NCBI GenBank assembly: GCA_035464315.1
Contig: DATHSI010000227.1
Coordinates: 1-42,078, forward strand
Source: Candidatus Sulfomarinibacteraceae bacterium
Lineage (GTDB): Bacteria; Chloroflexota; Anaerolineae; Promineifilales; Promineifilaceae
Reading direction: 5' to 3'
Length of the DNA: 42,078 nucleotides
Under the pieces are notes generated by a model. The model did no database searches. It worked only from the letters and a program-made list of their open reading frames with translations, and was not told the DNA's origin. Position 1 is the first letter of the stretch. Every line of letters starts with the position of its first letter. Made by a program: the position numbers and the translations under genes. Shown here piece by piece: positions 29,237-38,352 of this stretch.

Positions 29237-29403
29237 GAGAGATTGGAGATTGGTTGACTGGAGATTGGTTGCGGATGGCGCCATAGCGCCAAGCCGATAA
29301 ACGCAGATAATTTGAGATCTTTCATCAGCGTCTATCGGCGTCCATCGGCGGCAAAGATTCTCCAATCTCCAGTCTCCGATCTCCAATCTCCGATCTCCAA
29401 TCC
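29237..29403. repeat. GGAGATY-heptad inverted-repeat element, copy B (two arms of tandem heptads flanking an ~80-nt core), between convergent stop codons
   Basis: Left arm ggagagattggagattggttgactggagattggttgcgg. Right arm tccaatctccagtctccgatctccaatctccgatctccaatccc, i.e. (GGAGATY)n inverted. The core contains the palindrome atggcgccat. The element abuts the TAG of tag (+) and the TAG of the minus-strand GT-C gene. Confidence 0.6.
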
Positions 29404-31941
29404 CTATTCTCTCACAACCACCGGTCCCAATATGTACCGATCCCCAACCAGGTTGCCCTGCGCGTCGGCCAGGTGCAGGCGGCGACCGCTGGTCATTTCG
29501 TAGAGACCGACTTCGATGAAGTAATCGCCCGGTGGGAGGTCGTCCCTGATCGTCAGGCGATAGGGGTCCCACAGGCGTTGGCCGGGGAGCCACTTGGGAA
29601 TCCACAGGTGGGTGGGGGCGGCGCCGCCCAGGGGCGTGTAATCCAGCTCTTGATAGGAGCGGTTGGCGGCGTCGATGAGGTGCACGAAGACAGTATAGCT
29701 TTCCTCAGCCTGCGCCAGACTACGCCACTGCAAGAACAGATTGATTGTGTCGCCGTTCTGCACCGTCAGCGGCGTCTGCCACGGGCCGCGGCGCAGCGAT
29801 AGACCGCTCTGGGCCCAGGCCATAGACAACCCCACACGCTGGCGGAAGTTGGCCAGGAGCTCGTCTGTGTGCGGCGGGCGCGGCTGCGCCCGGACCTCTA
29901 GCGGCCCCAGTTCCACGTCCAGCGGCAGAAGCTCGTCCTGGCTCAGGTTCTTGAGAGCCAACGACAGCGGGTAGCTGCCCGCGGGCAAATCGTGGGGCAG
30001 TGCGAAGTCGAAACGTTCTACAATTACCTCTTCCGGTTCCCACAGCGGCGTCAGGAGGTGGTGGTCCGTCGTGTAAGTGTATTCAATGGCCTGCTTATCG
30101 CCTCCAGACGGCACGCCGCCCAGCGCGAGCGAGGGCACGTAGTACTCCTCCGGCGTTTGTGGTGCACGCATGGCCAGGACGAGGGGCACGAAGTCGCCCG
30201 CCGTTACCTCGCGCCGGGGCAGCCCGTAACCAACGACCTCGATCTCCCCCGCCGAGACCGCAAGCTCGTCCAGCTCCGGCGGGATGGATTCCTCGCCCGG
30301 TTCCACCACCTCGTAGAACGGTCCGCGCGGTCGCAGCCGGAAACCGGCGGCGACAATCTCGCTGCGGTAGCCGTTAAGGTAGACGGGGCCGCCGCCCAGG
30401 TAAGCGTAGACGCTTTCCACCCACGGTTGTTGTGTGGAGACGAATTCGGGGCGCACGTCGGTGGGATCGGGCCAGCGCTCGTTTACAAAGCGCTCGTACC
30501 ACATGGGCGTCATGTGCTCCCAGTCGTGCAGCAGCACGGCGCGCTCGGCGCGGCCCTCAAAGTAGTCGAAAACCGCTTCCACATAGCCGCGTCCCTCGTC
30601 GTAGTCGCGCAACGAAATGTGCGGCAGGTTGCGCGCGGCCTGTTGCACGGGTCCCAGCAAAAAGAAGACGGCGACGAGCAAGGCTGCGACGCGCGCGGTG
30701 GATTGTGCCCACCGGCCGGACTGCGTCCAGCGGCTGGATAAAATCCAGCTTGGCGCGGCGTGTACGACGGCCAGCAGCCCCAGGCCGGAGAGCATGCCCC
30801 AGAGCATGAAGGGTCCCAGCAGGTAGGCCATGATGTCCTGCGCGCGCAGGCTGATGACGAACGCGTAGTTGGCCAGGAAGGCCACACCGTAGAGCAGCGC
30901 CAGCCGCCGGCGCAGCGGGCCGGCGCGCCACAGCCACAGCAAGCCCAGCGGCGCCAGCAGGATGGTGGGCAACGCGTACTGCAGCCGCATCAGCGTCCAG
31001 AAAACGAGGGTGCGCAAAGGCTGTTCGGCCAGGCTGTAGAAGGGCAGGCTCTCCGTCAGCCCGCGGGCCAGAACGTGGTCCAGAAAGCCCTGTAGCGTGT
31101 TCATGTTGTGCGGCCCGAACACCGGCTCCATCGCGCTGCGCAGAGGGAAGTAGAGCCACACGCTTAACCCCAGCAGCGCCATCAGCAATGTCCTGACGAT
31201 GGTACGTCCCTGACGCCAAATGCCGGGGCGCACGGTAAGGATGAACAGGCCATAGGCGGGGAAGCCGAAGACGGTCAGTGGATGGTGCGTGATGCCCAGC
31301 CCGGCGGAGAGAGCGAAGATGTACAGCCAGCGGTCGTCCCCCTCATCGGTCAACTTGCCGGCGTCTCCGGCGTGGGAGAGTCCCCAGCGCGTCAGGAGGT
31401 AGAGGTTGGCCATGAGGAAAGTGGCCGTGATGATGTGCGGGTTGGCGTGAATGGCGTGTTGCCACACGTCGGTTGCCAGGCCCACGGACAGCGCGCCGAA
31501 TAGGGCCGCCCACCCCGCCGGGAATCGGTCTGGCTCACGCCCGGCGACGGCGCGGATCATTCCGTATATGAAAATGGCGGCAACCGTGGCGCTGGTTGCC
31601 GACAGCAGGTGCATGCGCCACGGAATGTCGCCCAAGGGAATCAACGTCTGGAACAGTTTGCCGGCGAGGGTGATGAAGGCATACCCTGGCGGATGGGCGA
31701 TGCCCAGCACGTTGGCCACCAGCGTATACTCGGTCGGATCGCCGAGGACGAGGGAGCGGGCGAGGGTGAGGAGATAGAGGAGGGGAAGGGCGAGGAGGAG
31801 TAGGGGCTGGAGATTGGAGATTAGAGATTGGGGATTAGAGATTGGAGATTGGAGATTACTGGCACGCCTCGCCGCTCGCCGCTCTCCGCTCTCCGCTCTC
31901 CGCTCTCCAATCACCATGCCCTTACTTCCTGATTGCGTCAT
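29404..31941 (-). CDS. DUF2723/TMEM260-like GT-C family membrane glycosyltransferase (protein O-mannosyltransferase-like)
   Basis: Polytopic N-terminal half with GDPTEYTLVANVLGIAHPPGYAF (the DUF2723 signature region), then a large C-terminal soluble domain. The first ~40 codons of the track ORF are encoded by repeat copy C; the true start may be ATG 31917 or further downstream with a non-ATG start. Confidence 0.6.
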   Translation of the reverse strand: MTQSGSKGMVIGERRAESGERRAARRASNLQSPISNPQSLISNLQPLLLLALPLLYLLTLARSLVLGDPTEYTLVANVLGIAHPPGYAFITLAGKLFQTLIPLGDIPWRMHLLSATSATVAAIFIYGMIRAVAGREPDRFPAGWAALFGALSVGLATDVWQHAIHANPHIITATFLMANLYLLTRWGLSHAGDAGKLTDEGDDRWLYIFALSAGLGITHHPLTVFGFPAYGLFILTVRPGIWRQGRTIVRTLLMALLGLSVWLYFPLRSAMEPVFGPHNMNTLQGFLDHVLARGLTESLPFYSLAEQPLRTLVFWTLMRLQYALPTILLAPLGLLWLWRAGPLRRRLALLYGVAFLANYAFVISLRAQDIMAYLLGPFMLWGMLSGLGLLAVVHAAPSWILSSRWTQSGRWAQSTARVAALLVAVFFLLGPVQQAARNLPHISLRDYDEGRGYVEAVFDYFEGRAERAVLLHDWEHMTPMWYERFVNERWPDPTDVRPEFVSTQQPWVESVYAYLGGGPVYLNGYRSEIVAAGFRLRPRGPFYEVVEPGEESIPPELDELAVSAGEIEVVGYGLPRREVTAGDFVPLVLAMRAPQTPEEYYVPSLALGGVPSGGDKQAIEYTYTTDHHLLTPLWEPEEVIVERFDFALPHDLPAGSYPLSLALKNLSQDELLPLDVELGPLEVRAQPRPPHTDELLANFRQRVGLSMAWAQSGLSLRRGPWQTPLTVQNGDTINLFLQWRSLAQAEESYTVFVHLIDAANRSYQELDYTPLGGAAPTHLWIPKWLPGQRLWDPYRLTIRDDLPPGDYFIEVGLYEMTSGRRLHLADAQGNLVGDRYILGPVVVRE
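31808..31912. repeat. GGAGATY-heptad element, copy C: (GGAGATT/AGAGATT)x7 followed by (CGCTCTC)x4
   Basis: ggagattggagattagagattggggattagagattggagattggagatt ... cgccgctcgccgctctccgctctccgctctccgctctcc. It overlaps the annotated 5' end of the GT-C ORF on the minus strand. Confidence 0.6.
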
Positions 31942-33040
31942 AGATTCTCAGCGTTTCCTGCGCCGCGCGCGCCCAGCTGAAACGGGCGGCCTGTTCCAGG
32001 CCTAGATGCCGGCGTTGATGGTAGTCGTCGCTGTCCTGCAGCAGGCGGCGAATCACGTTCGCCATTTCCTCGGTGCTGGTGGGATCGAAGTAGGCCGCTG
32101 CGTCGCCGCCCACTTCAGGGTGCGAGCTGCTGTTGCTGGCGGCGACGACCTGGCCACAGGCCATATGCTCCAGGAGCGGCAGGCCGAAGCCTTCGTAGAG
32201 GCTGGGCTGCACGGCGAGGTCGGCGGCGGCAATGACGGCGGGTAAATCGTCGTCCGCCACCCAGCCCAACGGCACAACCGCATCCTGTAGGCCCAGCTCT
32301 TCGATGCGCGCGAAGAAATCGTCGTAGAGCCAGCCCTTGCTGCCTGCCAGGACCAGGTGCAGGTCGGGGTAGTCGCGGCGCACGATGAGCAGCGCGTCCA
32401 GTAGGCGACTCAGGTTCTTGCGCGGTTCGATGGTGCCCAGGTGAATCAGGAACTGCGGGGGCAGATCGTACTGTGCCCGCACGCGTTGCACGTCTCGCGC
32501 CTCCGGTGGGCGGAAATGATCGGCCGCTGCTTCGTGAACGACGTGTATCTTAGCCGGATCGACCGCGTAATGCGTGATGATATCCTGTCGTGTGGCCTGC
32601 GAAACGGCCACGATGGCTGCGGCGCGCCGGCAGAAAATGGGCATGGCTGCGTTCAGAAACCAATAATTTAACTTTTTGTGGTAGGCGGGAAAGAGCTTGA
32701 AAATCAGGTCGTGCACCGTGAGGACGGTGGGCACGCCGCGCAGGGGCAAGAGCAGATGCTCCGTGCTGTGGAACAGCGTGGCGTCCGGCACCAGGCGGTT
32801 GAAACCCTTCCGGCTGAGGTGGCCCAGCAACACCAGCATGCGCCACGGTTTGTAGCCCAGCTTTATGCTGCGGCGGGGAGCCGAGGCCAACGAGGTGGGC
32901 AGGACACCGTCGGCCCCTCTATTATAGAAAAGAGCGATCTCCTCCGCTCGCTGCGCGCGCAAAGCCTGCGCCAGTCGCTCGCTGTAGCGGCCAAGGCCGG
33001 CCCGGCTGTGAACGGCTGCCGACACATCTACGTAGATCAC
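31922..33040 (-). CDS. glycosyltransferase family 4 (GT-B, retaining)
   Basis: EGFGLPLLEHMACGQVVAASNSSSHPEVGGDAAAYFDP is the classic GT4 EX7E region. GTG start at 33040. Confidence 0.75.
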   Translation of the reverse strand: MIYVDVSAAVHSRAGLGRYSERLAQALRAQRAEEIALFYNRGADGVLPTSLASAPRRSIKLGYKPWRMLVLLGHLSRKGFNRLVPDATLFHSTEHLLLPLRGVPTVLTVHDLIFKLFPAYHKKLNYWFLNAAMPIFCRRAAAIVAVSQATRQDIITHYAVDPAKIHVVHEAAADHFRPPEARDVQRVRAQYDLPPQFLIHLGTIEPRKNLSRLLDALLIVRRDYPDLHLVLAGSKGWLYDDFFARIEELGLQDAVVPLGWVADDDLPAVIAAADLAVQPSLYEGFGLPLLEHMACGQVVAASNSSSHPEVGGDAAAYFDPTSTEEMANVIRRLLQDSDDYHQRRHLGLEQAARFSWARAAQETLRIYDAIRK

Positions 33041-33085
33041 GGCGCCAACCGCAACGCGCCCGCCTGCTGGCTGTTTGTTGCTACG

Positions 33086-33127
33086 ATCATGCTTGCTCCA
33101 TCATGCTTGCGCCATCATACTTGCTCT
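33086..33127 (-). repeat. 3 x 14-bp tandem repeat (minus strand GGnGCAAGyATGAT) spanning the epimerase stop and the GT4 5' leader
   Basis: Plus strand atcatgcttgctcc / atcatgcttgcgcc / atcatacttgctct. Each unit carries an SD-like GGAG/GGCG/AGAG + ATGAT on the coding (minus) strand. Confidence 0.7.
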
Positions 33128-34068
33128 TTTTCCCACCACTCCGTGCACCAGGAGACCGCTTTATGAATGCCTTCACGCAGAGGCGTTGCCGGCTCGTAGC
33201 CGAGGAGCGCGCGCGCCTTGCCGATGTTGGCCACGTAATGGGTGACTTCGCCCACACGAGAGGGTTCGATGGACATCTCGGGCTCCACGCCCAGGGCCTG
33301 GCCTACGTAACGGGCCATGGTCACCAGGCTGTTGCCCTGTCCATAAGCCAGGTTGATGGTGTGGTTGGCCTCGTCGCCGGAAGCCAGCAGGTCAATGCCC
33401 GCACGCACGCCCGCGATGCAGTCGTCGACGTAGGTGAAATCGAGTACTTTGTCTTCGCCGTAAATTGTGATCGGTTCGCCGCGGTCGATTTTACGGATAA
33501 AGAGGGGGATCACGCGCTCCATGCGCTCCAGGTCGTTATCGTAACGCCCGTAGACGTTGCTGAAGCGGAAAACCAGATAGCGCAACCCGTAACATTGGGC
33601 GTAGGCGTAGATCAGGGCCTCCCCGGAGATTTTGCTCGCGGAGTAGGGACTCTCCGTAAAGGCGAAGTCGGCGTACGATTCCTCGGTGATGTAGCGGTGG
33701 ATATCACCGTACACCTCGCGCGAGCTGCTGAAGATGAGGGGCAGAGCGTTCTGGCGGCAGAACTCGAGCACGTTGTAGGTCATGGTGATATTTTGCAGAG
33801 CGCGGTCGGGCTCTTCGACCAACTCGTGCACCTTGGCGTGAGCCGCAAAGTGCACCACGACGTCCAGATCTTCCGGATATTGCACGTGGCCGATGCCGCC
33901 CTCGAAGCTGTGATAGGGCGCGCTCAAGTCCTGCAACAGCGTTTCGAATTCGTCCGTCCAGGGGTTGAGACGGATGTCGATGCCAAATACGTAATGTCCA
34001 TCGCGGAGCAGGCTCAGGGCCAGGTTGGTCCCGATCTGCCCGCTGGAACCGGTAATTAAAACTCGCAT
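33115..34068 (-). CDS. NAD-dependent epimerase/dehydratase (SDR family; UDP-sugar epimerase-like)
   Basis: N-terminal MRVLITGSSGQIGTNLALSL Rossmann motif. Catalytic YSASK (YxxxK). AAGGAGA SD upstream of ATG 34068. Confidence 0.85.
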   Translation of the reverse strand: MRVLITGSSGQIGTNLALSLLRDGHYVFGIDIRLNPWTDEFETLLQDLSAPYHSFEGGIGHVQYPEDLDVVVHFAAHAKVHELVEEPDRALQNITMTYNVLEFCRQNALPLIFSSSREVYGDIHRYITEESYADFAFTESPYSASKISGEALIYAYAQCYGLRYLVFRFSNVYGRYDNDLERMERVIPLFIRKIDRGEPITIYGEDKVLDFTYVDDCIAGVRAGIDLLASGDEANHTINLAYGQGNSLVTMARYVGQALGVEPEMSIEPSRVGEVTHYVANIGKARALLGYEPATPLREGIHKAVSWCTEWWEKEQV

Positions 34069-38247: not shown

Positions 38248-38352
38248 TAGAGATTGGAGATCAGAGATTGGAGATCAGAGATCGGAGATTGGGAAACTTA
38301 CGCTCTCCAACCTCGAATCAACCAATCTCCAGTCAACCGATTTCCAATCTCC
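38248..38352. repeat. GGAGATY-heptad inverted-repeat element, copy D; its distal end overlaps the last codons and stop of cysC
   Basis: Left arm agagattggagatcagagattggagatcagagatcggagattggg. Right arm cgctctccaacctcgaatcaaccaatctccagtcaaccgatttccaatctcccc. The 17-mer ccaatctccagtcaacc is the exact reverse complement of ggttgactggagattgg in copy B. Confidence 0.6.

Follow-up and report, generated by a model that had tools for sequence, protein, structure and literature searches.

A triplicated 14-nt unit and a chain of mini-ORFs between an epimerase and a GT4 glycosyltransferase gene in a Chloroflexota operon

Coupled junctions, short ORFs and the locus

No coupling geometry is commoner in prokaryotes than the 4-nt ATGA overlap of a stop and a start codon. 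That ribosomes can terminate and reinitiate at 4-nt NTGA overlaps is well established (PMC6728339, PMC10666635), and the process is sensitive to distance: in E. coli, reinitiation drops by 80–90% or is lost completely once 38 nt of untranslated sequence separate stop and start (PMC10666635). The idea of short ORFs that bring ribosomes to a coupled gene downstream is likewise recognised (review PMC12548453). In coupling of this kind, translation of the short ORF is what matters, not its peptide. Mini-ORFs of the lambda bar type represent the minigene case. Toxic minigenes have 3–8 codons (PMC2490762). Among intergenic repeats, the mycobacterial MIRU are units of ~40–100 bp that occupy ~40–50 loci and are thought to be mobile (Supply et al. 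1997, as relayed in PMC12548453 and PMC3184786).

The locus described here lies in a window of 42,078 nt, by which we mean the whole stretch of DNA that was analysed. Its minus strand carries an operon with genes for a GT4-family glycosyltransferase, a WecG/TagA-type transferase, an epimerase, a GT4 and a TMEM260-like transferase. The features at the epimerase–GT4 junction are as follows, in the direction of transcription.

33115 to 34068, minus strand: NAD-dependent sugar epimerase/dehydratase, 317 aa (ORF, translation and Pfam PF01370, E=1.7e-41)
33114 to 33127, minus strand: repeat unit 1, AGAGCAAGTATGAT, which holds the epimerase stop TGA (33117–33115) and an ATG that overlaps it (33118–33116)
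33101 to 33118, minus strand: mini-ORF 1, encoding MMAQA (ATG ATG GCG CAA GCA TGA); its start overlaps the epimerase stop (ATGA) and its stop is at 33103–33101
33100 to 33113, minus strand: repeat unit 2, GGCGCAAGCATGAT
33087 to 33104, minus strand: mini-ORF 2, encoding MMEQA; its ATG (33104–33102) overlaps the stop of mini-ORF 1 and its stop is at 33089–33087
33086 to 33099, minus strand: repeat unit 3, GGAGCAAGCATGAT, the counterpart in the junction alignment of the single unit of the sister lineage
33037 to 33090, minus strand: mini-ORF 3, the 17-codon bridging ORF, encoding MIVATNSQQAGALRLAP, with its ATG at 33090–33088 and its stop at 33039–33037
33041 to 33086, minus strand: 46-nt spacer, which the sister lineage has as well and the overlap junctions L155 and L157–L161 lack
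31922 to 33040, minus strand: GT4-family glycosyltransferase, 372 aa; it starts with GTG, and nothing SD-like lies upstream

The three tandem units (33086–33127) contain three ATGA motifs, and the minus strand across them reads ...GAG CAA GTA TGA TGG CGC AAG CAT GAT GGA GCA AGC ATG ATC GTA G.... Tandem Repeats Finder (TRF) reports an array at 33086–33126 with a period of 14, 2.9 copies, 88% matches and a score of 68. A search of the 42 kb window for the 14-nt unit with ≤2 mismatches returns three adjacent sites only, and the repeat is thus real rather than a chance resemblance. The last three codons and the stop of the epimerase fall within unit 1. All four junctions of the chain are 4-nt overlaps (ATGA or GTGA), the last being formed by the TGA of the bridging ORF (33039–33037) and the GT4 GTG (33040–33038), and alternative starts with a 1-nt TGATG overlap are also there. 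A GGAG at 33099–33096 stands 5 nt ahead of the third ATG (33090). It arises at the boundary of units 2 and 3, where the sister junction reads AAAGAGAAGGCATGA and has no GGAG; unit 2 has GGCG at the site where unit 3 has GGAG. Three substitutions distinguish the units and none falls in an ATGA, an outcome with a chance probability of ~0.36 when 30 of the 42 positions are taken as lying outside these motifs. The first-pass annotation had reported three tandem 14-bp units creating three junctions, a chain leading from the epimerase stop through MMAQA, MMEQA and a 17-codon ORF to the GT4 GTG, and the GGAG 5 nt before the third ATG; the units were recovered on the minus strand, by TRF and by the unit search, and every coordinate of the chain and of the GGAG proved correct.

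The same triplicated junction is found in two further assemblies, L001 (ERZ27272644) and L002 (SRR9691048), which show 14 and 4 substitutions, respectively, relative to the window. Because three assemblies that differ by SNPs carry it in identical form, an assembly artefact is excluded.

The position of the GT4 start is well supported by homology, as the 27 aligned homologues all start at this residue and 25 of them share the column of the window, most beginning with MIY[VI]D[VI]SAAVHS, and the remaining two have 1 or 4 additional N-terminal residues. SD use in the operon is sparse: of 11 upstream regions, two have a clear AAGGAGA and one or two more a weaker, purine-rich candidate. The canonical motif precedes the epimerase, where it lies 6 nt 5′ of the ATG, and the adenine glycosylase. 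Since most operon genes also lack an SD, its absence at the GT4 gene is no sign that this gene depends on coupling, and we set it aside as a proof of coupling.

In its geometry, the junction resembles NTGA/TGATG coupling (Huber et al. 2019, PMC6728339; Huber et al. 2023, PMC10666635), with co-directional ORFs and a 4-nt overlap at every link. Unlike the coupling of two genes, however, the window iterates the overlap through three non-conserved mini-ORFs. An SD within the upstream ORF is common, but not universal, in NTGA coupling; here a GGAG precedes the third ATG only and nothing SD-like precedes the GT4 GTG. As with ribosome-delivering uORFs (review PMC12548453), the stop of a short, non-conserved ORF falls on the start codon of a real gene; unlike the uORFs of 5′ leaders, those of the window are three in series and lie inside an operon. 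Mini-ORFs 1 and 2, at five codons, have the length at which toxic minigenes show frequent peptidyl-tRNA drop-off (PMC2490762), but in the window the third ATG alone has an SD-like motif. Neither flanking gene's frame depends on the number of units, and the array is thus not a contingency locus; the epimerase takes its stop from unit 1, and the GT4 start comes only after the array.

The junction in relatives and its probable history

Orthologous loci were gathered from genomes, metagenomes and exact-protein look-ups. In a first survey, the epimerase lies immediately upstream of the GT4 gene in 16/75 orthologous GT4 loci. Many orthologous GT4 genes follow unrelated genes, or long spacers without a relay of overlapping mini-ORFs, and the family can therefore be translated independently. 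Where the two genes are adjacent, the junction is highly plastic: its spacers measure -4, 5, 6, 6, 7, 9, 46, 60, 61, 64, 67, 74, 79, 93, 118, 147, 151 and 212 nt.

The shortest of these is found in the nearest outgroup (epimerase identity of 89–90%), in which the two genes overlap directly by ATGA (...GGC GAA TGA / ATG ATC TAC..., six contigs, L155 and L157–L161), the textbook geometry of NTGA coupling. A GTGA overlap of epimerase and GT4 is seen in L016. The sister lineage of the window (L003, L148 and L163) is ~88% identical to it at the nucleotide level, with 95–96% identity in the epimerase and 92% in the GT4, and in each of its three assemblies has one unit (GAGAAGGCATGA) and a 46-nt spacer. 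Its 17-codon ORF, encoding MTVTTHRRQTRAPRLAS, begins at the epimerase stop and terminates in the GT4 GTGA, which suggests that the bridging ORF was already present in the ancestor of the window and the sister clade. The window, L001 and L002 (~99.9% identical) have three units and a spacer of 74 nt, or 46 + 28. A junction alignment of the window, L003 for the sister lineage and the overlap junctions of L155 and L016 displays these states together.

Taken with the outgroup, these junctions make it likely, in our view, that the array is a slippage scar, a lineage-specific 14-nt triplication at a junction that formerly overlapped and was probably translationally coupled. The ancestor would have had a direct 4-nt ATGA overlap of epimerase and GT4. 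The common ancestor of the window and the sister lineage would then have gained 50 nt between the ATGA and TCTACG, with NTGA at both sides, which would have left the old GT4 ATG on the epimerase stop. From there it would now open the 17-codon ORF, which would end on the TGA of the new GT4 GTGA start. Later, and only in the lineage of the window, amplification of 14 nt around the first ATGA to three copies would have lengthened the junction by 28 nt and created two 5-codon ORFs. Replication slippage is the most likely cause of the triplication, the mechanism and the order of events being deduced from five lineages. That epimerase and GT4 were ancestrally coupled is probable from the general behaviour of NTGA overlaps (PMC6728339).

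Slippage at this junction would not be unusual, given that short tandem repeats build up at the gene boundaries of this clade. In L015, an independent 10-bp tandem duplication (ATGATCTATC x2) of its ATGA junction yields no clean relay. In L149, L150 and L156, the epimerase–GT4 junction is filled by arrays of the heptamers GGAGATT and CCGTCYA, the copy number of which differs even between contigs with the same epimerase protein. TRF returns 30 rows for the window itself, among them repeats of 21 bp and 42 bp in the gap that immediately precedes the epimerase gene and, at three other gene boundaries, arrays of heptamers.

Among close relatives we see no copy-number polymorphism of the 14-nt unit, with three units in 3/3 assemblies of the window lineage and one in 3/3 of the sister lineage. 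A search of JGI metagenomes for intermediate copy numbers gave at best 72% identity over the GT4 N-terminus. The first-pass annotation had suggested that the array could act as a tunable device whose copy number would change by slippage, and the constancy within each lineage lends this no support.

As far as the sources cited here describe MIRU, the locus shares several traits with them: tandem units lie between co-transcribed genes, small ORFs overlap the flanking stop and start at a spacing of -4 (PMC12548453), the number of units differs between lineages, and filled and empty sites can be compared, the tetranucleotide direct repeat at MIRU ends being similar to the NTGA on either side of the 50-nt insert (PMC3184786). 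Unlike MIRU as portrayed there, the unit is 14 nt long, locally derived, unrelated in sequence and confined to a single site in 42 kb, and its number is constant among close strains, in what is a small sample of three assemblies for each lineage. A dispersed MIRU- or MITE-like element was rejected, as neither the unit nor the spacer has a second copy in the fragment of the genome available for judging dispersal (the 42 kb window) or in 0.7 Mb of related loci. By the size, dispersal and within-lineage variability given for MIRU in these accounts, the 14-nt unit is not a MIRU and is at most a miniature, local version of one.

Selection on the chain and competing explanations

The spacer is 72% identical between window and sister (33/46), compared with 71% and 75% at four-fold sites of the flanking genes, and the spacer, with its bridging sequence, is evolving at the neutral rate. 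Of the 13 differences in the bridging ORF, 6, 3 and 4 are at codon positions 1, 2 and 3, from which we conclude that the peptide is not conserved; 8/17 residues are identical. A regulatory leader peptide or attenuator was rejected on these grounds together with a fold z-score of +1.19 and the lack of an Rfam match. Retention of the bridging ORF is uninformative as evidence of selection, because it would stay open after 13 random substitutions with P=0.67.

Strict relay chains occur in four junction types only, those of the window, the sister lineage, L010 (a 4-codon GTGA...ATGA ORF) and L124 (a 40-codon ORF), and in a shuffle test over 16 junction types, which leaves out that of the window, they are not significantly enriched (3 versus 1.7 expected, P=0.16). 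When all tandem amplifications with periods of 4–30 that contain the ATGA were enumerated in the reconstructed single-copy junction and scored for a strict relay, it was kept in 263/375 duplications (70%) and in 375/375 triplications. The chain of mini-ORFs is automatic because each unit brings an ATGA of its own, with a period of 2 mod 3. Unlike the repeat, the relay geometry is no more than chance gives, an arithmetic by-product with no evidence of design. The relay looks like an automatic by-product of copying and not an evolved control device. Of the coupling relay proposed by the first-pass annotation, the exact overlap geometry thus stands, and the outgroup adds an ancestral overlap; the idea that the relay evolved as such finds no support, in view of the neutral spacer, the lack of enrichment and the arithmetic. 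That annotation had named, as evidence against its proposal, relatives with the junction free of repeats and with an independent SD and ATG for the GT4 gene; the relatives compared do lack the repeats, but they show no independent SD/ATG for GT4.

Ribosomes that finish the epimerase may be passed along the mini-ORF chain to the SD-less GT4 GTG, and de novo initiation at the third ATG, with its GGAG 5 nt upstream, may also feed it. Judging by the overlaps in the sequence, such a hand-off is plausible, and because reinitiation falls steeply with untranslated distance, the translated bridge is the sole route by which coupling could cross 74 nt. The extra units themselves are most likely near-neutral or slightly attenuating, rather than adaptive tuning.

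A rival position holds that the chain is a functional termination-reinitiation relay, in which serial reinitiation leads to the GT4 GTG and slippage sets the efficiency. The exact 4-nt overlap (or alternative 1-nt overlap) at every junction, the GT4 GTG without an SD, the ancestral coupling implied by the direct overlap of the outgroup, and the difference of three units versus one between lineages all agree with it, as does the requirement of reinitiation for an overlap or a very short distance, by which an untranslated 74-nt gap would break coupling (PMC10666635). Yet the copy number is constant within each lineage (3/3 and 3/3 assemblies), the relay is the arithmetic outcome of amplification and is not enriched among related junctions, many GT4 orthologues stand behind relay-less long spacers or unrelated genes, and most neighbouring genes must be translated with no SD either. 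Each added hop should, moreover, lose ribosomes and would only weaken coupling. We therefore regard a tunable coupler as unlikely. It is equally improbable that the amplification was selected for its new GGAG, with the bridging ORF as a ribosome-delivering uORF that raises GT4 expression independently of the epimerase. The GGAG does form at the boundary of units 2 and 3 and is absent from the sister junction, canonical AAGGAGA motifs are used on the epimerase and the adenine glycosylase, and short ORFs that bring ribosomes to a downstream gene have the precedent cited above (PMC12548453). It is, however, a single occurrence that is not replicated in other lineages, the motif is not kept across units, as the equivalent site of unit 2 reads GGCG, and SD use is sparse over the 11 upstream regions of the operon. 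A third position, that the repeat acts as nucleic acid (protein-binding repeats, an internal promoter or a structured RNA) or is an assembly artefact, we consider highly improbable. Direct repeats in triplicate at a gene boundary could in principle form the binding site of a regulator, and promoter activity has been reported for MIRU-containing spacers (PMC4213456), but the spacer has no promoter-like or terminator-like site, the fold is weaker than in shuffles, Rfam gives no match, the unit occurs nowhere else in the window, no Pfam family matches the plus-strand ORFs of the region, and three SNP-differing assemblies share the sequence.

Several observations run against treating the chain purely as a by-product. 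After the 50-nt insertion, and again after the 28-nt amplification, the ORF chain before an SD-less GTG was still unbroken, which is what a selective filter that preserves coupling would give; the substitutions among units all spare the ATGAs, at the chance probability noted above; and the triplication gave the bridging ORF a GGAG at ideal spacing, a possible benefit. On this evidence, selection on hand-off might have filtered which length changes survived, so that the 50-nt insertion and the triplication were kept, with the GGAG perhaps boosting delivery, as a MIRU-like expression tuner in Chloroflexota. We hold this to be doubtful, with the qualification that the selection tests applied here have low power against a filter for coupling-preserving length changes.

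Other elements and broader context

The search for other functional elements at the junction was negative. No promoter or terminator is found in the spacer. No RNA structure is found at the junction, where the fold z-score of +1.19 means that folding is weaker than in shuffles. In Rfam, nothing comes near the gathering score, and the sole matches are far below it and outside the junction; a structured RNA or riboswitch was rejected on these results. The possibility that the 46-nt spacer is a decayed copy of the GT4 5′ end or of the epimerase 3′ end was likewise dismissed, as local alignment to the flanks in the window is no better than with shuffles (500/2000 and 233/2000). The plus-strand ORFs at 32678–33166 and 33103–34059 have no Pfam match and were rejected as genes, being shadows of the minus-strand genes.

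We place the slippage scar within known categories, as the junction is a new example of junction tandem duplication and of NTGA coupling. Its interest lies partly in the evolutionary series that it would complete, from a direct ATGA overlap through a 50-nt insertion to a 14-nt triplication. The series illustrates the way in which overlapping stop/start junctions break up and the reason that their remains tend to resemble a designed relay. It also carries a caution, in that mini-ORF chains at tandemly amplified ATGA junctions are expected from arithmetic alone. Were the relay functional, it would be a natural case of serial termination-reinitiation through mini-ORFs and a simple means of tuning enzyme ratios in a polysaccharide operon.

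A separate observation concerns the origin of the DNA. The name under which the MAG was deposited, Candidatus Sulfomarinibacteraceae, belongs to the Acidobacteriota; the close homologues of both the epimerase and the GT4 are all from Chloroflexota/Anaerolineae, for example Promineifilaceae and Ardenticatenaceae.

Epimerase–GT4 junctions in other assemblies

Besides the three tandem 14-nt units that join the epimerase gene to the downstream glycosyltransferase (GT4) gene in the window, further kinds of junction were observed at orthologous loci from other assemblies (L-numbers):

L149 2440-2608, L150 2440-2604 and L156 1530-1650: heptamer-filled epimerase–GT4 junction
L015 2489-2512: ATGA junction between epimerase and GT4 duplicated in tandem as a 10-bp unit, ATGATCTATC ATGATCTATA
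L010 2490-2504 and L124 1379-1503, from two other lineages: single bridging ORF from epimerase stop to GT4 start

In the first set, which comprises relatives with epimerases of ~89-90% identity, arrays of GGAGATT and CCGTCYA heptamers occupy the junction, with spacers of 93-151 nt, and themselves encode the final codons of the epimerase gene (..WWRLESGD*). The epimerase proteins of L149 and L150 are identical, yet the arrays of these two loci are unlike in both length and content. The duplication in L015, another Chloroflexia MAG, arose independently, and its first copy leads to a 7-codon out-of-frame ORF with no clean relay of stop/start overlaps. Of the two bridging ORFs, the short one in L010 (GTGAATTGTCGATGA, 4 codons) is expected by chance in shuffles (P=0.84), while the long one in L124, with 40 codons and TGATG at its end, is beyond chance expectation (P=0.03).

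Heptamer arrays at gene boundaries

Heptamer tandem arrays are also located at gene boundaries in the window and in L148, a locus of the sister lineage:

Window 31808-31908, 29239-29411 and 38249-38349; L148 2260-2415: heptamer tandem arrays

These arrays consist of CGGAGAG / GGAGATY units followed by the near-complementary AATCTCC, and they are similar to cyanobacterial STRR repeats. The array at 31808-31908 lies within the first ~37 codons of a TMEM260-like gene, where it is translated into ...NLQSPIS... repeats. There are 7 AATCTCC units in the window versus 10 in L148, a 21-nt difference that preserves the reading frame of this gene.

Surroundings of the epimerase gene and contig label

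34069-34259: 191-nt intergenic region upstream of the epimerase
33103-34059, plus strand: 318-aa ATG-initiated ORF, exactly antisense to the epimerase gene

Most of the intergenic region is made up of a 21-bp (x2.3) and a 42-bp (x2.1) tandem repeat, with GC-rich hairpins, for example GGCCAAAC-TTCG-GTTTGGCC; related copies occur in a different arrangement in the sister loci L003 and L148. The antisense ORF matches no Pfam family; most likely it is a shadow of a GC-rich coding region. Its start ATG falls within the 14-nt repeat because the unit reads ATCATGCTTGCTCC on the plus strand.

The contig of the window (NCBI proteins HSM57626.1 and HSM57627.1) carries the label Candidatus Sulfomarinibacteraceae, a group of Acidobacteriota (Thermoanaerobaculia). 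The close homologues of GT4 and the epimerase all come from Chloroflexota/Anaerolineae MAGs, so mis-binning or mislabelling of this contig is possible.
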